In this document: positions 18,936 to 59,284 of the stretch, one piece after another
How the letters are laid out: each line of letters opens with the position of its first letter
How positions within the stretch are numbered: position 1 is the stretch's first letter
Assembly: GCF_041886205.1 (NCBI RefSeq)
Contig: NZ_CP169029.1
Length of the DNA: 64,000 nucleotides
Reading direction: 5' to 3' (one strand)
Origin: Escherichia coli
GTDB taxonomy: Bacteria; Pseudomonadota; Gammaproteobacteria; Enterobacterales; Enterobacteriaceae
Notes under the pieces: generated by a model
Told to the model about the DNA's origin: nothing
Database searches by the model: none
What the model saw: only the letters and a program-made list of their open reading frames with translations
Program-made: the position numbers and the translations under genes

Positions 18936-20111
<1,176 letters not shown>

Positions 20112-20257
20112 CATCTTGTTATCAGGGCGATTTTCGCCCTGATTGTCTGATGTTCCCTTTGTAATAATTCATTATTTTTATCATTTATCCTATAGCATTC
20201 ATGGCGATTATCGCTAAACTATGGCGACTTAAAATTATTTCGTCCGTTAGGGTAATG

Positions 20258-21235
20258 ATGAGAGTAGAAAATAATAATGTTTCTGGGCAAAACCATGACC
20301 CGGAACAGATTGATTTGATTGATTTACTGGTGCAGTTGTGGCGTGGCAAGATGACAATTATCATCTCTGTCATTGTGGCTATTGCCCTGGCTATAGGGTA
20401 TCTGGCCGTTGCCAAAGAAAAGTGGACTTCCACAGCTATCGTTACTCAACCTGATGTGGGGCAAATCGCTGGTTATAACAATGCCATAAATGTGATTTAT
20501 GGTTCGGCAGCGCCGAAAGTGTCTGAGATCCAGTCGATGTTAATTGGTCGTTTCAGCACGACATTTTCTGCATTAGCGGAAACGCTGGATAATCAGGAAG
20601 AACCTGAAAAACTGACCATTGAGCCTACCGTTAAAAATCAGTCCTTACCTTTAGCGGTTTCTTATGTTGGTGAAACAGCTGAAGGTGCGCAGAAACAGCT
20701 GGCGAAGTATATCCAGCAAGTTGACGACCAGGTAAATGAAGAACTGGAACAAGACCTGAAAGACAACATCGCGCTGCAAATGAAAAACTTGCAGGATTCT
20801 CTGAAGACGCAGGAAGTGGTTGCGCAGGAGCAGAAAGATCTGCGTATCCGTCAGATTCAGGAAGCGTTGCAGTATGCGAATCAGGCGCAGGTGACAAAGC
20901 CGCAGATTCAGCAGACACAGGACGTAACCCAGGATACTATGTTCCTTTTGGGGAGCGAAGCGCTGGAGTCGATGATTAAGCACGAGGCGACTCGTCCGTT
21001 GGTGTTCTCATCAAACTACTATCAGACTCGTCAAAACCTGCTGGATATCGACAATCTTGACGTTGATAAACTTGATATTCATGCTTACCGCTATGTAATG
21101 AAACCGACGTTACCTATTCGTCGCGATAGCCCGAAAAAGGCAATTACCTTGATTCTGGCGGTGCTGCTGGGCGGCATGGTTGGCGCGGGGATTGTGTTGG
21201 GGCGTAACGCTCTGCGTAATTACAACGCGAAGTAA
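20258..21235 (+). CDS. wzzB: O-antigen chain-length determinant (polysaccharide co-polymerase) Wzz
   Basis: About 325 aa from MRVENNNVSGQNHDPEQIDLIDLL; two TM segments flanking a coiled-coil periplasmic domain; C-terminal GGMVGAGIVLGRNALRNY. Confidence 0.95.
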   Translation: MRVENNNVSGQNHDPEQIDLIDLLVQLWRGKMTIIISVIVAIALAIGYLAVAKEKWTSTAIVTQPDVGQIAGYNNAINVIYGSAAPKVSEIQSMLIGRFSTTFSALAETLDNQEEPEKLTIEPTVKNQSLPLAVSYVGETAEGAQKQLAKYIQQVDDQVNEELEQDLKDNIALQMKNLQDSLKTQEVVAQEQKDLRIRQIQEALQYANQAQVTKPQIQQTQDVTQDTMFLLGSEALESMIKHEATRPLVFSSNYYQTRQNLLDIDNLDVDKLDIHAYRYVMKPTLPIRRDSPKKAITLILAVLLGGMVGAGIVLGRNALRNYNAK

Positions 21236-21253
21236 TCTTTGCAGCTTTAAAGA

Positions 21254-21290
21254 AAACGGGCAGGGTGGTGACACCTTGCCCGTTTTTTTT
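21254..21290 (+). terminator. rho-independent terminator after wzz
   Basis: Hairpin aacgggcagggtg...caccttgcccgtt followed by a run of 8 T; a second hairpin (ggatgcga...tcgcatcc) follows at about 21293-21318. Confidence 0.6.
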
Positions 21291-21331
21291 GCCGGATGCG
21301 ACAACAACATCGCATCCGCTTACCCCGCAAC

Positions 21332-21943
21332 TCACTGATGCCGTTTGCGCAGGTTCTCAATCACCGTCGTTAAGTCCAGATCCTGATCCTGCAACAATAC
21401 CAGCAGGTGATACATCAAATCAGATGCCTCGTTGGTCAGCTCAAAGCGGTCATGTACCGTTGCTGCCAGTGCGGTTTCCACGCCTTCTTCGCCCACTTTT
21501 TGCGCAATGCGTTTGGTGCCGCTGGCATACAGTTTGGCAGTGTAAGAGGTTTCCGGGTCGGCAGATTTGCGTTCGGCGAGCAATTGTTCCAGTTGATACA
21601 GGAACAGCCATTGGTGAGCGGTGTCGCCGAAGCAGCTGCTGGTGCCTTTGTGGCAGGTCGGACCGATGGGATTAGCCAGCACTAATAAAGTGTCGTTGTC
21701 GCAGTCCGGTGCAATACTCACCACATTGAGGAAATTGCCCGACGTTTCGCCTTTGGTCCACAGTCGCTGTTTAGTGCGCGAGAAGAAGGTGACTTTGCCG
21801 CTTTCGATGGTTTTGTCTAAGGCTTCCGGGTTCATATAGCCCAGCATTAACACTTCGCCGGATACCGCGTGTTGCACAATCACCGGCATCAGTCCGTCGG
21901 TTTTTTCCCAGTCCAGTTCGCGACGTTGTTGTTCTGTTAACAT
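21332..21943 (-). CDS. hisI: bifunctional phosphoribosyl-AMP cyclohydrolase / phosphoribosyl-ATP pyrophosphatase
   Basis: 203 aa; [38 protein letters not shown], canonical HisIE. Confidence 0.97.
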
Positions 21944-22278
21944 ATCCTGATCTCCACGCCCTGTGTTGCCAGGTACGCTTTTAATTCACCAATATTGATT
22001 ATTTGTTTGTGGAATACGGAAGCTGCCAGCGCGCCGTCAACGTCGGCATCACGGAAGGCTTCGAGGAAGTGTTCCATGGTGCCCGCGCCACCGGAGGCAA
22101 TTAGCGGGACGTGGCAAACTTCACGCACTTTTTTCAGTTGTTCGAGGTCGTAACCGTTACGCACGCCGTCCTGATTCATCATGTTGAGGACGATTTCTCC
22201 GGCACCGCGTTTTTGCACTTCCTGTACCCAGTCGAGCGTTTCCCACTGAGTGACGCGGGTGCGGCTTTCATCGCCCAC
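21937..22278 (-). pseudogene. hisF: hisF, 3' portion only (C-terminal about 113 codons); 5' part replaced by foreign DNA
   Basis: Translation matches the HisF C-terminus ([38 protein letters not shown] ... [17 protein letters not shown]); an in-frame stop lies just upstream of the homology and no HisF N-terminal sequence is present. Confidence 0.85.
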
Positions 22279-22279
22279 A

Positions 22280-27475
<5,196 letters not shown>

Positions 27476-27480
27476 GGCGA

Positions 27481-28380
27481 TCACTCCATCATCTTCTCAA
27501 TCGGCAGGACCAGGATTGAACTGGCACCCAGCGCTTTCAGTTTTTCCATGGTTTCCCAGAACAGGGTTTCGCTGCTGACCATGTGCATCGCTACGCGTTG
27601 TTGGTCACCCGCCAGCGGCAGAATAGTTGGGCGTTCGGCACCTGGCAGCAGGGCGATGACTTCATCCAGACGTTCGGTCGGTGCGTGCATCATGATGTAT
27701 TTTGATTCGCGCGCCTGGATCACACCCTGAATACGGGTCAGCAGTTTGTCGATCAGTTGCTGTTTGGATTCTTCCATTTCGCCATCGCGTTGTATCAGGC
27801 AGGCTTTCGAGCGATAGATAACTTCGACTTCGCGCAGGCCGTTAGCTTCCAGCGTGGCACCGGTGGAAACCAGATCGCAAATCGCATCCGCCAGTCCGGC
27901 ACGCGGGGCGACTTCAACAGAACCGTTCAGTAAGCAGGATTTAAAAGAGATACCTTTCTGGTCGAGATAACGCTTGAGCAGGTGAGGATAAGAGGTGGCG
28001 ATACGTTTACCGTTTAAGGAGAGCGGGCCATCCCAGGCTTCATCAACCGGCGTTGCCAGTGAAAGTCGGCAGCCGCCGAAATCCAGACGACGCAGGGTAA
28101 AGTAGCGTGGATCTTCACCCTGGGCGCGGCGGTTAAGCAGCTCTTCTTCCAGCACGTTTTCGCCGATAATCCCGAGGTCAACCACGCCGTCCATTACCAG
28201 ACCGGGAATGTCGTCGTCACGCACGCGCAGAATATCAATCGGCATGTTTTCTGCCATCGCGATCAGGCGCTGGGTGTGAAGATTGATTTTAATGCCACAG
28301 CGCGCCAGCAATTCGCGTGAGTCATCACTTAAACGGCCGGATTTCTGCATAGCTATGCGTAAACGAGTGTTGTCTGTCAT
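27481..28380 (-). CDS. hisG: ATP phosphoribosyltransferase
   Basis: 299 aa from [34 protein letters not shown]; canonical HisG. Confidence 0.97.
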
Positions 28381-28428
28381 TTTCTTATTCCTCTTTAAAC
28401 CTGTCTGAACCGTTATCAACCGCGCAAT

Positions 28429-28462
28429 AAAAAAGCCCCCGGAAGGTGATCTTCCGGGGGCT
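28429..28462 (-). terminator. his operon attenuator (rho-independent terminator between hisL and hisG)
   Basis: On the minus strand a GC-rich hairpin (agcccccggaag ... cttccgggggct) is followed by a U run, directly downstream of the His-rich leader ORF. Confidence 0.85.
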
Positions 28463-28525
28463 TTCTCATGCGTTCATGCACCACTGGAAGATCTGAATGT
28501 CTTCCAGCACACATCGCCTGAAAGA

Positions 28526-28576
28526 CTAGTCAGGATGATGGTGATGATGGTGGTGTTTAAATTGAACGCGTGTCAT
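28526..28576 (-). CDS. hisL: his operon leader peptide (MTRVQFKHHHHHHHPD)
   Basis: Minus-strand reading gives atgacacgcgttcaatttaaacaccaccatcatcaccatcatcctgactag, seven consecutive His codons. Confidence 0.95.
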   Translation of the reverse strand: MTRVQFKHHHHHHHPD

Positions 28577-28858
28577 AAAAGTCTCTGTGAATGTTTATTC
28601 AACTGATGTCTTTTAACCTAAACCACTTTCACGTTAGAAAGCAAGGGCTTTTTTATATATTTTATGGCGATGGATTTGTTTAATGAATGAGCGGGGAAAG
28701 GAGGGGGCTAAGAGGACTGTCCTCTAAGCTGACGGCACCAAAAATAGCGAAGCCTGGATTTTCGTCTCACTGACAATACCTTGATCTACAAACTAATTAA
28801 TAAATAGTTAATTAACGCCCATCATTGTACAATGAACTGTACAAAAGAGGAGATTGAC

Positions 28859-29110
28859 ATGCGTACAATTAGCTACAGCGAAGCGCGTCAGAATTTGTCG
28901 GCAACAATGATGAAAGCCGTTGAAGATCATGCCCCGATCCTTATTACTCGTCAGAATGGAGAGGCTTGTGTTCTGATGTCACTCGAAGAATACAACTCCC
29001 TGGAGGAGACGGCTTATCTACTGCGTTCCCCCGCTAACGCCCGGAGATTGATGGACTCAATCGATAGCCTGAAATCTGGCAAAGGAACGGAAAAGGACAT
29101 CATTGAGTGA
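28859..29110 (+). CDS. yefM: antitoxin YefM (type II toxin-antitoxin)
   Basis: 83 aa from [41 protein letters not shown]; overlaps the downstream toxin gene by 4 nt. Confidence 0.95.
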
Positions 29111-29361
29111 AACTAATCTGGTCTGAGGAATCATGGGACGATTATCTGTACTGGCAGGAAACAGATAAGCGAATTGTTAAAAAGATCAATGAACTTATCA
29201 AAGATACCCGCAGAACGCCATTTGAAGGTAAGGGGAAGCCAGAACCCCTGAAACATAATTTGTCAGGTTTCTGGTCCCGACGCATTACAGAGGAGCACCG
29301 TCTGGTATACGCGGTTACCGACGATTCACTGCTCATTGCAGCATGTCGTTATCATTATTGA
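29107..29361 (+). CDS. yoeB: toxin YoeB (ribosome-dependent mRNA interferase)
   Basis: 84 aa; [50 protein letters not shown]. Confidence 0.95.
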
Positions 29362-29443
29362 ACAGATTCATTCATAGAATGAATTGTCAGTTTTGATACG
29401 CTAGCGTAGCCTTATAGATCTAAGGTGTATCAGGAGATAACGG

Positions 29444-30268
29444 ATGAAAAAGGTCGCAATTGTCGGGTTAGGGTGGTTAGGCATGCCGCTGGCGATGTCA
29501 CTTTCAGCGCGAGGCTGGCAAGTCACCGGGAGTAAAACCACACAAGATGGTGTCGAAGCGGCCCGAATGAGTGGCATTGATAGCTATCTGCTTCGCATGG
29601 AGCCTGAGTTAGTTTGCGATTCTGACGATCTGGATGCCCTGATGGATGTCGATGCGCTGGTCATTACGCTTCCGGCACGTCGTAGCGGCCCCGGCGATGA
29701 GTTCTATTTACAAGCGGTACAAGAGTTAGTGGATAGCGCGCTGGCCCATCGTATTCCCCGCATTATTTTTACCAGCTCAACATCTGTCTATGGCGACGCG
29801 CAAGGCACGGTGAAAGAAACTACCCCGCGTAATCCGGTAACCAACAGTGGACGAGTATTAGAAGAACTCGAAGACTGGCTGCACAATTTACCCGGTACTT
29901 CGGTCGATATTCTGCGTCTTGCGGGCCTGGTCGGACCGGGGCGTCATCCCGGACGCTTCTTTGCCGGAAAAACCGCGCCTGATGGTGAACATGGTGTTAA
30001 TTTAGTCCATTTAGAAGATGTTATTGGCGCTATCACTCTGTTGTTACAGGCACCTAAAGGCGGACACATCTATAATATATGTGCGCCAGCTCACCCTGCG
30101 CGTAATGTTTTCTATCCGCAGATGGCCCGTTTACTGGGGCTGGAGCCTCCGCAGTTCAGAAATAGTCTGGACAGCGGCAAAGGTAAGATTATTGATGGCA
30201 GTCGGATTTGTAATGAACTGGGATTTGAATACCAGTATCCCGATCCGCTGGTAATGCCGCTGGAGTAA
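29444..30268 (+). CDS. yeeZ: NAD(P)-binding epimerase/dehydratase-family protein YeeZ
   Basis: 274 aa; Rossmann N-terminus (VAIVGLGWLGMPLA); conserved position. Confidence 0.85.
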   Translation: MKKVAIVGLGWLGMPLAMSLSARGWQVTGSKTTQDGVEAARMSGIDSYLLRMEPELVCDSDDLDALMDVDALVITLPARRSGPGDEFYLQAVQELVDSALAHRIPRIIFTSSTSVYGDAQGTVKETTPRNPVTNSGRVLEELEDWLHNLPGTSVDILRLAGLVGPGRHPGRFFAGKTAPDGEHGVNLVHLEDVIGAITLLLQAPKGGHIYNICAPAHPARNVFYPQMARLLGLEPPQFRNSLDSGKGKIIDGSRICNELGFEYQYPDPLVMPLE

Positions 30269-39210: not shown

Positions 39211-39540
39211 ATGGAAACTACCAAGCCTTCATTCCAGGACGTACTGGAATTTGTTCGTCTGTTCCGTCGTAAGAACAAACTGCAACGTGAAATTCAGGAC
39301 GTTGAGAAAAAGATCCGTGACAACCAGAAGCGCGTCCTGTTGCTGGACAACCTGAGCGATTACATCAAGCCAGGGATGAGCGTTGAAGCAATCCAGGGCA
39401 TCATCGCCAGCATGAAAGGTGACTATGAAGATCGCGTTGACGATTACATCATCAAAAATGCCGAGCTCTCCAAAGAACGCCGCGATATCTCCAAAAAGCT
39501 GAAAGCTATGGGCGAAATGAAAAACGGCGAAGCGAAGTAA
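39211..39540 (+). CDS. yeeX: UPF0265 family protein YeeX
   Basis: 109 aa from [41 protein letters not shown]; the ORF-track upstream extension is rejected. Confidence 0.9.
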
Positions 39541-39640
39541 TTCCCGTTTTATTCAATGAGGGTTGCCCGGCAACCCTCATTGCTCATTGATTCTTATCTG
39601 TGTATCACCGTCATCATTCTCATCTGAGAACCAATCGAAA

Positions 39641-39890
39641 TTAACAACAGCCTTCTTCTGTATGCAGCAAGGCAAAAAGTTCTGTAACTCCATTGTTATT
39701 AACTGCACTGGTTACTAACACGTTGTGCGCTCCAGCTTCCCGTAACCAACTTTTCACCAAAGATATTTGTTCCATGCTGGCTAAATCTGCTTTGGTTACT
39801 ACTCCAATGACCGGGTGATTCATGGCCCGGTAGGGCGTTTTTACCTCTAATTCCTGCTTCAGCGCTGAGATTCCTGCTTGTTGCCGGAAA
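39641..39890 (-). pseudogene. C-terminal gene fragment (possibly small GTPase-like); 5' end replaced by an IS66 remnant
   Basis: ORF 39641..39997 has a C-terminal part (VIGVVTKADLASMEQISLVKSWLREAGAHNVLVTSAVNNNGVTELFALL) that reads as a protein fragment, while its N-terminal part is encoded antisense to an IS66 transposase fragment. Confidence 0.4.
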
Positions 39891-39892
39891 AG

Positions 39893-40052
39893 CAGGCACC
39901 TGCCGTCTGAACGGTATCGATCCGGAAGCGTATCTGCGCCATATTCTGAGCATACTGCCGGAATGGCCCTCCAACCGTGTTGACGAACTCCTGCCATGGA
40001 ACGTAGTTCTCACCAATAAATAAGCGTCAATACGGTGCTCCGTTGACGCTTA
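39893..40052 (+). mobile_element. IS66-family right-end remnant (3' end of transposase gene plus terminal inverted repeat)
   Basis: Plus-strand translation GTCRLNGIDPEAYLRHILSILPEWPSNRVDELLPWNVVLTNK* matches the C-terminus of the intact IS66-family transposase at 57043..58614 ([33 protein letters not shown]); followed by caatacggtgctccgttgacgcttac, resembling that copy's terminal repeat. Confidence 0.75.
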
Positions 40053-40437
40053 CTTTAATCCGTTTTCTGAGCTTAGATTTTTCTGTTCCTACCCAGACCG
40101 TGGATTTGGAATTCATTTTTTGTCAGGTCAATGCTAATCGTTAAAACGGCCATAACGCACCTCCACTGGAAGGTTTATCAGTAATATCCTACCGTTGCTT
40201 CATGGTCGGGGCGTCCATTCCATTATTATCGGTTTTCCTTTCTGTTTATAAATGAAAACGCCAGCTGTATTCAGGCTGGCGTCAGGGGAAATGAAGCCTG
40301 TTGAGTGAGATTCACCGGTTCTGGTGCAGAAGCTGCAGATGGCGCAGGGTAAGGACATCTTCTCTTGCCTGCTTAATACAGGACAACAGTGCTGTTTCTG
40401 TGGTTAATGGTACTATACCCTGCATCACTGCATTGTC

Positions 40438-40632
40438 TTACAGCAACTGGTGAGGGCTGGCATAAGTTGCCGGTGTTTCGGTAGAGTCACGGTCATCCAC
40501 CACGCGGAGTGAATAACCTTTTTCAGCGGCCTTATTAATCAGTTCAGTGATATTAACACCATCAATGTCAACGACAATGTGCCCCATATCCAGCGCCTGT
40601 ACGTTAACGCTGTCGGCTTCCAGTGTCATCAT
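40438..40632 (-). CDS. hypothetical 64-aa protein
   Basis: ATG preceded by a strong Shine-Dalgarno (ggaggcgaaatgatg on the coding strand); compositionally typical coding sequence; function unknown to me. Confidence 0.45.
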   Translation of the reverse strand: MMTLEADSVNVQALDMGHIVVDIDGVNITELINKAAEKGYSLRVVDDRDSTETPATYASPHQLL

Positions 40633-40749
40633 TTCGCCTCCGGATACTTACCCAGGGTAATGTTATTTACCGTTCTGTAATTGTCGCGGGTCATCAGGCC
40701 GGTCGCCCTGCGAGCCCGGAGGATATCGATGCTGTTTATTAACTGAGAG

Positions 40750-41459
40750 CGGGTATGGGCGCTGCTTCGCAGACAGGCAGAACTTGATGGTATGCCTGCG
40801 ATCAATGCCAAACGTGTTTACCGGATCATGCGCCAGAATGCGCTGTTGCTTGAGCGAAAACCTGCTGTACCGCCATCGAAACGGGCACATACAGGCAGAG
40901 TGGCCGTGAAAGAAAGCAATCAGCGATGGTGCTCTGACGGGTTCGAGTTCTGCTGTGATAACGGAGAGAGACTGCGTGTCACGTTCGCGCTGGACTGCTG
41001 TGATCGTGAGGCACTGCACTGGGCGGTCACTACCGGCGGCTTCAACAGTGAAACAGTACAGGACGTCATGCTGGGAGCGGTGGAACGCCGCTTCGGCAAC
41101 GATCTTCCGTCGTCTCCAGTGGAGTGGCTGACGGATAATGGTTCATGCTACCGGGCTAATGAAACACGCCAGTTCGCCCGGATGTTGGGACTTGAACCGA
41201 AGAACACGGCGGTGCGGAGTCCGGAGAGTAACGGAATAGCAGAGAGCTTCGTGAAAACGATAAAGCGTGACTACATCAGTATCATGCCCAAACCAGACGG
41301 GTTAACGGCAGCAAAGAACCTTGCAGAGGCGTTCGAGCATTATAACGAATGGCATCCGCATAGTGCGCTGGGTTATCGCTCGCCACGGGAATATCTGCGG
41401 CAGCGGGCTTGTAATGGGTTAAGTGATAACAGATGTCTGGAAATATAGGGGCAAATCCA
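40750..41459 (+). mobile_element. insD: truncated IS2 (3' about 710 bp: C-terminal 218 codons of InsD/OrfB plus right terminal repeat)
   Basis: ORF 40792..41448 translates to the IS2 OrfB C-terminus ([53 protein letters not shown]...); upstream in-frame [14 protein letters not shown] is preceded by a stop; IS2 end ...ggggcaaatcca at about 41459. Confidence 0.9.
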
Positions 41460-41792
41460 GCCACGAATGCGGATTTGTTTACGGCCTGCCAAGGAGTTGT
41501 CTGTTATCTCTACTCCGGGGATGTCCTGCAAATTATCGGCTATGGAGGCATTGGTGGAGTTCTGCAATGTTTGTTGGTCAATAACCTGTATAGTCGCCGG
41601 GCTTTCCCAAAGGTTGCTTGCCGAACGATTCGTGGTCACGACGAGCGTCTCTTCGTTGCTGATTTTTGTTTCTGAAGAAGTTGCGGTTGCAGTAGAAACT
41701 ATCCCAGAAATGCATAATGACAGAGTGGAAAGGATATAAATTCGACAAGGTATATTATATAACATTTCATCCCTCATTAATACAAAGTACAA
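41460..41792 (-). pseudogene. yoeA: N-terminal fragment of a TonB-dependent outer-membrane receptor gene, truncated by IS2 (yoeA-like)
   Basis: ORF 41373..41792 minus begins with a signal peptide and plug-domain motifs (ETLVVTTNRSASNLWESPATIQVIDQQTLQ ... DNLQDIPGVEITDNSLAGRKQIRIRG) and then runs into the IS2 end. Confidence 0.75.
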
Positions 41793-41968
41793 ATGATTGC
41801 TGTAATGATAATTATTTTCATTTATGTTCTCATATATCTATAATTATTGTCATCTTCATAAATTGTAAATATCAAACATTTTTGACCTTAATCATGTTTT
41901 TTGATAGATATTTTACGACTGAACATATCCGTCGTTTCCTCTGACTCGTGTCAGTCGGTCTCTGGTTG

Positions 41969-42010
41969 TATCCACGGACCGCACTCTTGACATAAGAGTG
42001 CGGTCCGTGG
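41969..42010. repeat. 42-bp near-perfect palindrome (ccacggaccgcactctt gaca taagagtgcggtccgtgg)
   Basis: Read directly; 17-bp arms around a 4-nt loop, located just upstream of the yoeA-like fragment. Confidence 0.7.
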
Positions 42011-43436
42011 AAAACGGAGTTGAAAAAATGGTGTCTGAAAGAAGGTACCATCATTGTGATGACAAATACTTTGGCGTGGATAATGTAATTAATTGCTGAA
42101 ATTGACCGTATATGCGGTAAGACTCATATCAGTACCAGGTCCGGTTAATTGCTGATACTAATATAAACTTTTTACAAAAGGATGAATGCAGAAGGTTACT
42201 CTAATGGCCAGAGTGATGACAATGATGGTCAGACGTTGACCTGCAGAAACTGCATTTTAATTGGTCTATAAAGTCTGCAAGAGGAATCAGGGTCAGATCA
42301 GTGAGTCTTATCGCGGCCCGAAGCTATGACTGAAAGAAGGCTGGATACAGAATTGCAACAATTTGGCAATGTCAGAACACAGAAGCTTTGCAAGCAGGTG
42401 AAAGGTTATGTCTAGCAAAAGGAGTATATCAGAATATATCTACTGATGTACAAAACACAACAATAGCTTCATGATATATAAATACGTGATGACGAGTGGT
42501 ACTCCGCATGGTTATTTAACTTCTCAGCACCACTAATGATCCTGAGCAACTTCGTATTTGGGCCATTACCATGGAGTAGAAAGCTGTGTCTGAGAATGCA
42601 GAATTTGAGAAAAGAATTCGCTTTCTTGGAGAGCTTCTGAAAATGGCACGCTAACAACGTTTTGTTAAAAAATGTGAATCACTTGCCGGGGCTGCATTTT
42701 CTATTCGAGGAGAATGTTGACGTAGATATTACAGAAATCTCAGCGCATCAGGATAAACTGCTACCTTAGGTCAACCACCAAAAGAAAATACAATACGTCC
42801 AGTTTGTATGCCTTTAATAACACATCTTCTAAATGTTGAAGAATTATCCCGCCTGCTGAAGAACGTTGCTCTGAGTGTGATAAACCTTTTTATTCTTGAT
42901 GATGTCAGCGAGAAGATGGAATATATCCCCGACTGGGTCGTGGTTACCCGGTTAAACATCTGGTGGCGCTAATAAATCTGGCAAGTCACATTCTGTTGAA
43001 TGCTGTGACAGTGCCTTACCGAGAGAGCGAAATTGTGGTGTTCTAGTGCATAGTCGCCACCATTCCGGATAATTCTATTACGTTGTTTTACAAGTTCTTT
43101 TACAGCGCAGATCTGTCGCTGACGTTGAATCAATAGCCTGGATTTCAGAACACAATGCCCGTTTGCTGGTTGTTCCGGCAGTAGCATTAATTCATTATCT
43201 GAATGAAATGTGTCAATCCACAGAAACCGCTGTCAATGACGCATTTTGTCGGACGTTAACACGAGAAAGTCTGGCTATTCCGTAATGCCATCTTATTTCG
43301 TAATGGATTGAGAATGCTGGATTTTTAATTATATTACGCGCAGTATTAATCGCGTAAATGTTTTGCGGTCAGCAACGGTGGGGGATCCATTGTTCTGTTC
43401 AATGAATACCATCATACATTTGAATCAGGAGTCGGT

Positions 43437-55872: not shown

Positions 55873-55945
55873 ATGTTTTTAGCATCATTGTTGAGACGTA
55901 TTGCATTTAGTTACTACGATTATAAAGCTTATAATTTCAATATTG
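55873..55945 (+). pseudogene. yeeL: 5' end of a family-9 (heptosyltransferase-like) glycosyltransferase gene, yeeL-like, interrupted by IS66 insertion
   Basis: ATG with SD gggagg; MFLASLLRRIAFSYYDYKAYNFNI is in frame, across the IS and its target duplication, with the ORF downstream of the IS. Confidence 0.65.
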
Positions 55946-55998
55946 GTAACCGGCTCATTTAAACCGTCTGGTCTGTTTCCTCCGGCTCTACAAAAATA

Positions 55999-56676
55999 AT
56001 GTCCATCATTTTTAATGGACACTATCGTATGAAACACCGGACCTGGATCACTGAAGCTTTACGTCTTCACTTTGAAGAACATTTACCCCGGGTTGTGGCC
56101 GGGCGTCGCCTGGGTGTACCAAAATCAACAGTTTGTAGTATGTTCGTGCGCTTTCGGAGAGCTGGCCTTTCGTGGCCTTTGCCCGCAGGCATGTCGGAGC
56201 AGGAACTTGATGCCTGCCTTTACGGACAATTTTCCACGGTACCAGTCGTACGTCCTGAAAGCACCGTTATATCCGAAGCCCCCGTGGTAAAAAAACGTCC
56301 CCGGCGGCCCAACTTCCCTTATGAGTTTAAAATCGCCTTAGTGGAGCAGTCACTGCAGCCCGGAGCCTGTGTGGCGCAGATCGCCCGGGAAAACGGAATC
56401 AACGATAACCTGCTCTTCAACTGGCGCCATCAATACCGGAAAGGTGGCCTGCTGCCTTCCGGAAAAAATATGCCGGCACTGCTTCCCGTGACGTTAACGC
56501 CGGAGCCGGATAATAAAATCCCGGCCCCCGCACAGGAACCAGAGCAGATAAATACACCGTCCGACAGTCTGTGTTGTGAGCTGGTTCTGCCGGCCGGAAC
56601 TCTCAGGCTTAAAGGTAAACTGACGCCGGCGTTATTACAGACACTTATCCGCGAAATAAAAGGGAGCAGCCACTGA
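55999..56676 (+). CDS. IS66-family accessory protein (orf1, HTH-containing); true start uncertain
   Basis: First ORF of the element; stop overlaps the start of orf2 (ATGA). Confidence 0.6.
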   Translation: MSIIFNGHYRMKHRTWITEALRLHFEEHLPRVVAGRRLGVPKSTVCSMFVRFRRAGLSWPLPAGMSEQELDACLYGQFSTVPVVRPESTVISEAPVVKKRPRRPNFPYEFKIALVEQSLQPGACVAQIARENGINDNLLFNWRHQYRKGGLLPSGKNMPALLPVTLTPEPDNKIPAPAQEPEQINTPSDSLCCELVLPAGTLRLKGKLTPALLQTLIREIKGSSH

Positions 56677-57023
56677 TGATATCTCTCCCTGCAGGTTCGC
56701 GTATCTGGCTGGTTGCAGGTATCACCGATATGCGAAATGGCTTTAACGGCCTGGCATCAAAAGTTCAGAACGTCCTGAAGGATGACCCGTTCTCCGGACA
56801 CCTGTTCATCTTCCGCGGACGCCGGGGTGACCAGATAAAAGTGTTGTGGGCTGACAGTGACGGACTGTGCCTCTTCACCAAACGCCTGGAGCGGGGCCGC
56901 TTCGTCTGGCCAGTCACCCGTGACGGCAAGGTGCACCTTACTCCGGCTCAGTTATCCATGCTTCTTGAAGGTATCAACTGGAAGCACCCGAAACGAACGG
57001 AACGCGCTGGAATCCGCATATAA
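56676..57023 (+). CDS. IS66-family Orf2 (TnpB-like)
   Basis: 115 aa; MISLPAGSRIWLVAGITDMRNGFNGLA, characteristic IS66 Orf2. Confidence 0.85.
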   Translation: MISLPAGSRIWLVAGITDMRNGFNGLASKVQNVLKDDPFSGHLFIFRGRRGDQIKVLWADSDGLCLFTKRLERGRFVWPVTRDGKVHLTPAQLSMLLEGINWKHPKRTERAGIRI

Positions 57024-57042
57024 CCCGTTGTAAAGTGAGGAT

Positions 57043-58614
57043 ATGGACACCTCACTTGCTCATGAGAACGCCCGCCTGCGGGCACTGTTGCAGACGCAAC
57101 AGGACACCATCCGCCAGATGGCTGAATACAACCGCCTGCTCTCACAGCGGGTGGCGGCTTATGCTTCCGAAATCAACCGGCTGAAGGCGCTGGTTGCGAA
57201 ACTGCAACGTATGCAGTTCGGTAAAAGCTCAGAAAAACTTCGTGCAAAAACCGAACGGCAGATACAGGAAGCACAGGAGCGAATCAGCGCACTTCAGGAA
57301 GAAATGGCGGAAACGCTGGGTGAGCAATATGACCCGGTACTGCCATCCGCCCTGCGCCAGTCTTCAGCCCGTAAACCGTTACCGGCCTCACTTCCCCGTG
57401 AAACCCGGGTTATCCGGCCGGAAGAGGAATGCTGTCCTGCCTGTGGTGGTGAACTCAGTTCTCTGGGATGTGATGTGTCAGAGCAACTGGAGCTTATCAG
57501 CAGCGCCTTTAAGGTTATCGAAACACAACGTCCGAAACAGGCCTGTTGCCGGTGCGACCATATCGTGCAGGCACCAGTACCTTCAAAACCCATTGCACGC
57601 AGTTATGCCGGAGCGGGGCTTCTGGCCCATGTTGTCACCGGGAAATATGCAGACCATCTGCCGTTATACCGCCAGTCAGAAATATACCGTCGTCAGGGAG
57701 TGGAGCTGAGCCGTGCCACACTGGGGCGCTGGACAGGTGCTGTTGCTGAACTGCTGGAGCCGCTGTATGACGTCCTGCGCCAGTATGTGCTGATGCCCGG
57801 TAAAGTCCATGCTGATGATATCCCCGTCCCGGTCCAGGAGCCGGGCAGCGGTAAAACCCGGACAGCCCGGCTGTGGGTCTACGTCCGTGATGACCGTAAC
57901 GCCGGTTCACAGATGCCCCCGGCGGTCTGGTTCGCGTACAGTCCGGACCGGAAAGGTATCCATCCACAAAATCACCTGGCCGGTTACAGCGGTGTGCTTC
58001 AGGCCGATGCTTACGGTGGTTACCGGGCGTTATACGAATCCGGCAGAATAACGGAAGCCGCGTGTATGGCTCATGCCCGGAGAAAAATCCACGATGTGCA
58101 TGCAAGAGCGTCCACCTACATCACCACGGAAGCCCTGCAGCGTATCGGTGAACTGTATGCCATCGAGGCAGAGGTCCGGGGCTGTTCAGCAGAACAGCGT
58201 CTGGCGGCAAGAAAAGCCAGAGCCGCGCCACTGATGCAGTCACTGTATGACTGGATACAGCAACAGATGAAAACACTGTCGCGTCACTCAGATACGGCAA
58301 AAGCGTTCGCATACCTGCTGAAACAGTGGGATGCACTGAACGTGTACTGCAGTAATGGCTGGGTGGAAATCGACAACAACATCGCAGAGAACGCCTTACG
58401 GGGAGTGGCCGTAGGCCGGAAAAACTGGATGTTCGCGGGTTCCGACAGCGGTGGTGAACATGCGGCGGTGTTGTACTCGCTGATCGGCACATGCCGTCTG
58501 AACAATGTGGAGCCAGAAAAGTGGCTGCGTTACGTCATTGAACATATCCAGGACTGGCCGGCAAACCGGGTACGCGATCTGTTGCCCTGGAAAGTTGATC
58601 TGAGCTCTCAGTAA
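57043..58614 (+). CDS. IS66-family transposase (TnpC)
   Basis: 523 aa; N-terminal leucine zipper, CxxC...CxxC zinc-binding motif (CCPACGG ... CCRCD), conserved DDE region. Confidence 0.9.
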
Positions 58615-58643
58615 ATATCAATACGGTTCTGACGAGTCGCTTA

Positions 58644-59284
58644 CCAATATTGAAAAAACAGACTTTGTTGTCATCCATATTCCCGATCAGATTGGCGATG
58701 CTATGGCCATCTTTCCTGTTATTCGGGCGCTTGAATTGCATAAAATTAAGCATCTTTTAATTGTAACGTCGACAATTAATTTAGAAGTCTTTAATGCGCT
58801 TAAACTTGAACAGACTAAATTAACATTAGTCACAATGACTATGCAGGATCACGCAACATTAAAAGAAATAAAAGATTTAGCAAAGAACATAACACAGCAA
58901 TACGGTACGCCGGATCTTTGCATTGAGGGGATGCGTAAAAAGAACCTGAAAACGATGTTATTTATCAGTCAGTTGAAAGCAAAAACGAATTTTCAGGTTG
59001 TTGGTATAACCATGAATTGCTTCTCCCCTTTGTGCAAGAACGCGTCCCGTATGGATCAGAAACTCCGGGCTCCCGTACCTATGACATGGGCATTTATGAT
59101 GCGTGAGGCGGGTTTTCCAGCAGTCAGGCCAATATATGAATTGCCACTAAGTGAGGATGTACTCGATGAGGTGCGCGAGGAAATGCGATCGTTAGGATCT
59201 TACATTGCGTTCAATTTAGAAGGTAGCTCGCAGGAACGTACATTTTCATTATCGATTGCAGAAAATCTAATAGCAAAAATTTAA
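58644..59284 (+). pseudogene. yeeL: yeeL-like glycosyltransferase-9 pseudogene, central part (resumes after the IS66 insertion)
   Basis: In-frame continuation ...NIEKTDFVVIHIPDQIGDAMAIFPVIRALEL..., reminiscent of heptosyltransferase N-terminal domain. Confidence 0.6.

Follow-up and report, generated by a model that had tools for sequence, protein, structure and literature searches.

Within a window of 64,000 nt of Escherichia coli DNA, which is the whole stretch that was analysed, the toxin–antitoxin genes yefM and yoeB lie beside the leader of a his operon whose interior is altered. This locus raises the question whether the pair and the leader are intact copies of known E. coli elements, whether the two are functionally connected, and how far the alteration of the his operon reaches.

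The yefM–yoeB operon and its promoter–operator region

The gene yefM (28859-29110, plus strand) codes for the antitoxin and autorepressor of 83 aa and yoeB (29107-29361, plus strand), which starts with GTG, for the toxin of 84 aa, a ribosome-dependent mRNA interferase. The two form a bicistronic unit in which the antitoxin gene precedes the toxin gene, and they share 4 nt (GTGA, 29107-29110). These sizes, the overlap and the extent of the intergenic region (28577-28858) agree with the original prediction, and the start codons could be located. In the list of open reading frames the yefM frame opens at the ATG at 28832, not at 28859. This alternative ATG, situated at −7, is not used, the yefM start codon being found at +21 from the published transcription start (PMC1802561).

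Both proteins were assigned to their families by matches that lie far outside chance. YefM matches PF02604 of Pfam (E 6e-28, 96.8 bits, cutoff 29.8) and, at 83/83 positions, the NCBIfam equivalog NF008499 (186.6 bits, cutoff 121, E 5.6e-56). YoeB matches PF06769 of Pfam (E 2.8e-43, 146.3 bits) and the full length of the NCBIfam equivalog TIGR02116 (132.8 bits, cutoff 51.8, E 3.8e-39), and aligns over all 84 residues to chain E of PDB 2A6Q (E 1.2e-56). The YoeB translation contains E46, R65, H83, and Y84, which we take from the structural literature to be the catalytic residues.

Positions 28380-29450 were used as megablast query against 5426 complete E. coli genomes. Copies with 100% DNA identity are present in natural isolates including NT1N31, NT1N34, JNEC-KY203, and JMF1, where they are annotated as hisL, His leader region, yefM, yoeB, and yeeZ. 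Aligned to K-12 MG1655 along about 1150 bp, the sequence shows nine substitutions and is free of indels. One of them (28384) is situated in the gap between the his terminator and hisG, four (28669, 28726, 28733, and 28819) in the intergenic region of hisL and yefM, and four (28999, 29005, 29026, and 29077) in yefM, where all are synonymous; yoeB has none. HisL, YefM, and YoeB are all identical in protein sequence to their K-12 counterparts. The alignment with K-12 yefM–yoeB–hisL therefore bears out the original prediction, as without indels neither toxin–antitoxin gene is frameshifted or truncated.

The known promoter of the operon, pyy, consists of the −35 hexamer TAGTTA, a 17-bp linker, and the −10 hexamer TACAAT (PMC7730913). 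Exactly this pattern was found on the plus strand at 28805-28833, with the −35 hexamer at 28805-28810, the −10 hexamer at 28828-28833, and the transcription start (+1) at 28839. Read from the sequence, the operator (28822-28843, plus strand) comprises the L palindrome TCATTGTACAATGA (28822-28835) and the S repeat TGTACA (28838-28843). L covers the −10 box and S the transcription start, and the centres of L and S are 12 bp apart. TGTACA motifs in L and S with this 12-bp spacing have been footprinted (PMC1802561), and the paired operator has also been defined in a second study (PMC7730913). The combined promoter–operator pattern (28805-28843) is matched exactly and occurs only once in the window.

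Promoter prediction in the region 28577-28858, which had been proposed as a check, gave a divided result, since a generic consensus scan found no promoter there whereas the published hexamer pattern was matched exactly. The scan covered 28350-29500 for promoters and terminators and did not call the terminator of the his attenuator either. It missed the promoters of both yefM–yoeB and his because the weak published hexamers fall outside its thresholds; the published −35 hexamer TAGTTA matches only 3/6 consensus positions. We set the consensus scan aside as uninformative and used literature-guided exact patterns for the promoters instead.

The K-12 operon (b2017/b4539) has the same GTG start, 4-nt overlap, promoter hexamers, L and S elements with their 12-bp spacing, and flanks. 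It differs from the operon in the window in the four synonymous and the four intergenic substitutions listed above, of which the one at 28726 weakens a palindrome at the left junction of the region (see below) and the one at 28819 lies in the pyy linker. The latter (C here, T in K-12) is found 3 bp upstream of L and is the only difference to K-12 nearby; the C is also present in the natural isolates with 100% identity. Since its proteins do not differ from those of K-12 and the promoter and operator known from the literature are in place, the pair is indeed the classical type II module that it had been called. The alternative, a pair that merely resembles yefM–yoeB and has decayed or lost its activity through a frameshift, a truncation or a damaged operator, has a negligible probability: both open reading frames are full length with amino acids identical to K-12, the substitutions in yefM are silent and yoeB has none, and promoter and operator are exact.

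Transcription of yefM–yoeB would accordingly be expected to start at about position 28839 from a weak sigma-70 promoter, TAGTTA-17-TACAAT. YefM dimers would occupy L and then S and, by covering the −10 box together with the start site, block RNA polymerase; YoeB bound to YefM would strengthen the repression. For the characterised operon it has been reported that YefM binds L and then S and excludes RNA polymerase, with YoeB as corepressor (PMC1802561, PMC7730913). Degradation of YefM by Lon would set YoeB free to enter the ribosomal A site and cleave mRNA, in line with the Lon-dependent loss of YefM that releases YoeB, a ribosome-dependent mRNA interferase (PMC7167474). Growth arrest and mRNA cleavage by YoeB as well as its neutralisation by YefM are probable for the pair in the window, as its proteins are identical to the experimentally characterised K-12 proteins.

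A related system is axe–txe of the Enterococcus plasmid pRUM, which has the same protein families, the same logic of a paired L/S operator, and an identical −10 hexamer TACAAT (PMC7730913). Its operator is, however, located within the promoter linker and its repression is weaker (PMC7730913). The window shows the pyy layout of E. coli and not this pat layout.

The his leader and the divergent arrangement

On the minus strand, the leader peptide gene hisL (28526-28576) codes for 16 aa with the translation MTRVQFKHHHHHHHPD and contains seven consecutive His codons. It is annotated as hisL in NT1N31, and the peptide is the same as K-12 HisL, amino acid for amino acid. The His leader RNA with the attenuator (28427-28550, minus strand) was identified as a match to RF00514 (His_leader, Rfam) at 131.6 bits and E 8.5e-23 (gathering score 49), comprising model positions 1-126/126. 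The attenuator consists of alternative hairpins (inverted repeats I1 and I2), with a G+C-rich terminator and a U-run just upstream of hisG, which starts at 28380. The terminator hairpin (E:F stem), which is followed by the U-run (28427-28469, minus strand), corresponds to inverted repeat I1 with 19-nt arms and a 5-nt loop and forms the terminal stem of the Rfam match. It is also present in the minimum-free-energy fold of the leader transcript (28420-28610, minus strand), where it is the final hairpin; this fold has −70.4 kcal/mol and z = −6.9 relative to shuffled sequences. The consensus terminator scan missed this hairpin at 28427-28469 although it is visible by Rfam, by the inverted-repeat search, and by folding, which is a caution against trusting that scan alone.

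Compared with the E. coli/Salmonella his leader (RF00514), the leader peptide with its seven His codons is identical, and the covariance model is matched at full length including the terminator hairpin. There is no difference inside the leader, the single substitution at 28384 being located between the terminator and the start codon of hisG. Upstream of the leader the hexamers TTGCTT-N18-TAGGTT (28615-28644, minus strand) occur once in the window; from the classical literature we take them to be the promoter of the his operon. Downstream, hisG (27481-28380, minus strand), the first structural gene of the operon, is intact, and in a tblastn search 299/299 aa were identical (100%) to HisG of NT1N31.

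The his leader is a classical attenuator: as the seven His codons are translated, charged tRNA-His is sensed, and this decides whether the terminator forms ahead of hisG. From the his promoter a leader transcript would be made that encodes the 16-aa HisL with its run of His codons. With an ample supply of charged tRNA-His, the ribosome would pass these codons and the terminator hairpin (28427-28469) would form before hisG is reached. With a scarce supply, the ribosome would stall and the antiterminator would form, resulting in transcriptional read-through. Such a response of read-through to charged tRNA-His is what the identity to the classical system leads us to expect for this leader.

The start codons of hisL and yefM are divergent and 282 bp apart (28577-28858), as in K-12. 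Downstream of yoeB, at a distance of 82 bp, follows yeeZ (29444-30268, plus strand), an open reading frame that carries this annotation in NT1N31 and K-12. The order in the window is the one given in Table 1 of PMC5120126: hisL, 282 bp, yefM, yoeB, 82 bp, yeeZ. The divergent arrangement of yefM–yoeB and hisL is also known from PMC1802561 and PMC3946193, so the statement that the pair occupies a known position beside hisL in E. coli stands, K-12 showing the same. The distance of about 280 bp that had been given between the pair and the hisL promoter region needs correction: 282 bp separate the two start codons, and this is not the distance from yefM to the his promoter.

We considered whether the position of yefM–yoeB could be functional, with starvation signalling or his expression coupled to toxin activation via shared or interfering divergent promoters. 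The two units are indeed divergent and have one 282-bp spacer in common, and this yefM–hisL spacer is among the divergent sites at which binding of the RpoD holoenzyme has been reported (PMC3946193). The −35 hexamers of the his and yefM promoters are, however, about 160 bp apart, so that there is no overlap between the two promoters. The region that carries yefM–yoeB as a cassette has its left edge at 28715 (see below), about 70 bp upstream of the his −35 hexamer, and many of the 5426 genomes, including O157:H7, lack the cassette while the side with the his promoter and leader is still identical. A review moreover argues that the sites at which toxin–antitoxin modules insert in chromosomes do not depend on what the genes beside them do (PMC7167474). 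Functional coupling is therefore very unlikely.

We are close to certain that the interval consists of two well-characterised and independent E. coli regulatory units placed back to back, the his control region on the minus strand and the yefM–yoeB operon on the plus strand. The analysis shows an intact sequence, proteins without any difference to those of K-12, the full set of published cis elements, and a pair that is present or absent as a cassette across E. coli. The biochemical activities of both units would be those described in the literature. Nothing that was examined in the toxin–antitoxin pair, in the leader, or in the way they are arranged is new.

The toxin–antitoxin pair as a presence/absence cassette

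Of the 5426 complete E. coli genomes, 4209 have the yefM–yoeB locus over at least 80% of the query. In the other matching genomes, of which a sample was taken down the ranking, about 39% of the query is covered, in two pieces; O157:H7 and several others belong to these. Most of those sampled carry a segment of about 210 bp with a REP element in this position. It has been reported that in O157:H7 Sakai the interval from yeeZ to hisL contains REP sequences and neither yoeB nor yefM (PMC3158064), and that toxin–antitoxin insertion sites alternatively hold REP sequences (PMC7167474).

The alignment with the empty site of O157:H7 places the cassette, consisting of the promoter, the operator, and both genes, at 28715-29366 (plus strand). 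The sequence is shared up to 28714-28719 and again from 29362-29367. In the O157:H7 allele about 210 bp with a REP element (L003 1335-1545) replace the cassette of about 650 bp; the flanks of this hisL–yeeZ spacer are shared with the window, with 138 bp beside hisL and about 77 bp beside yeeZ. It follows from the alignment that the cassette brings its own promoter and operator. A terminator of its own was not found for the yefM–yoeB cassette.

Both borders of the cassette are marked by palindromes. Across the left edge lies GCTAAGAGGAC-T-GTCCTCTAAGC (28707-28729, inverted repeat I3), a perfect palindrome in K-12 that contains a single mismatch in the window. Just after yoeB, in the flank common to both alleles, ATTCATTC-ATA-GAATGAAT is found at 29366-29384. 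Neither of the two is accompanied by a T-run. A search at the cassette junctions gave neither target-site duplications nor terminal inverted repeats. The left end of the cassette thus falls inside GCTAAGAGGAC-T-GTCCTCTAAGC and the right end 1-6 nt past the yoeB stop codon, beside the second palindrome. The junction palindromes might have been substrates for the insertion or exchange of the cassette, but we consider this unlikely. The presence/absence polymorphism itself is real and published, and only this mechanistic reading of the junctions would be new.

The O157:H7-type spacer has no cassette, whereas the window carries it despite an O-antigen cluster of the O157 family. This cluster lies within positions 1-22275, for which the best matches are O157:H16 strains with 98.7-98.8% identity. 

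Further observations concern the right half of the window. At about 39500-43400 and 55900-58700 the best-matching genomes annotate transposases of the IS2/IS3, ISL3, and IS66 (ISCro1) families, and some genomes match in several separate segments, which suggests insertion sequences in the right half. The pdu (propanediol) operon, which in NT1N31 is situated between tmaR (DUF496) and pocR/cobU, is apparently absent here, judging from the layout of the open reading frames.

The altered block inside the his operon

As the toxin–antitoxin operon and the his control region beside it are textbook versions, anything unusual in the his operon is limited to positions 22276-25423. This block on the minus strand is situated outside the toxin–antitoxin and leader unit and comprises the 3′ end of hisC, hisB, hisH, hisA, and the 5′ half of hisF. 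It has 3148 nt (about 3.1 kb) and is 15 nt longer than the native stretch. Compared with NT1N31, the identity is 99.9% over 19365-22275 (three mismatches) and 100% between about 25424 and 31000. On the left the block has an edge that is sharp to the base (22275/22276), and the last difference is found at 25423.

At the protein level, tblastn found 100% identity to NT1N31 for HisG, HisD, HisIE, and residues 147-258 of HisF. HisC decays past about residue 250, and of the N-terminal part of HisB only short, weak matches were found (aa 5-98, 46-48% identity). For HisA, HisH, and residues 1-146 of HisF, tblastn with the native His proteins gave no protein-level match in the window.

At the DNA level, the block retains about 78% identity to the native sequence in the stretch 24600-25423 and about 60% in the stretch 22276-24600, compared with a baseline of 52% for unrelated sequences. 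The block is collinear with the native operon, every 400-nt piece scoring 50-64 against its native counterpart and 10-17 against unrelated E. coli DNA. Unrelated filler could thus be discarded in favour of a degraded copy in place. In the better-aligned part, 84 substitutions were counted beside 68 insertions, mostly of 1 nt, and 15 deletions; the block as a whole has many insertions of 1-4 nt. Transitions are roughly as frequent as transversions, and AT is replaced by GC in 50 of the 84 substitutions, which is opposite to the mutational bias of E. coli.

Three megablast searches showed that positions 1-22275 and 25420-64000 are fully covered by known E. coli genomes and that the matches stop at the edges of the block. 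For the core of the block (22276-24700) a sensitive blastn search of the 5426 E. coli genomes and of the PLSDB plasmids gave no match. On this basis an IS element, a resistance cassette, or a plasmid fragment was rejected, the search comprising those genomes and PLSDB. A his allele imported from another species was dismissed since no protein similarity to HisA, HisH, or N-terminal HisF is left. Targeted hypermutation of the kind caused by a diversity-generating retroelement or a deaminase was rejected as well, as all four bases are changed and many indels are present.

The original prediction had described a strain with a disrupted his operon in which the pair and the leader are intact and the change is confined to the interior. 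The confinement was found as described, at 22276-25423; that the block reflects a strain is doubtful, since it does not look natural. If it were a natural property of a living histidine-auxotrophic strain, arisen by pseudogenisation or a mutational event, the toxin–antitoxin pair and the leader would have been spared by chance or selection. The block does respect the operon context: it is collinear, and the regulatory region, hisG, hisD, and hisIE are intact. Nevertheless, divergence of this degree together with dozens of insertions of 1-4 nt cannot accumulate locally between flanks that are unchanged (99.9-100% to NT1N31). The excess of AT-to-GC changes among the substitutions and the left edge that is sharp to the base argue against a natural auxotroph as well. 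So do the matches from the 5426 genomes, which end at 22275 and resume near 25420 while the core is unmatched in genomes and plasmids, and the loss of HisA, HisH, and N-terminal HisF similarity, which rules out an imported allele. We therefore regard a natural auxotroph as highly improbable.

Dense indels and saturating divergence directly beside unchanged flanks are not the outcome of a deletion, an IS insertion, interspecies recombination, or the natural decay of a pseudogene. Judged by its sequence, the block looks like a record artefact or like sequence degraded deliberately or synthetically, and not like strain biology. It may thus belong to the sequence record rather than to the living strain, and it should be treated as a probable artefact or synthetic degradation and not as evidence of a natural auxotroph. 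The practical value of the region with the toxin–antitoxin pair and the leader is that of a boundary marker: for anyone assessing the his anomaly, the promoter, the leader, the attenuator, hisG, and hisD are native.
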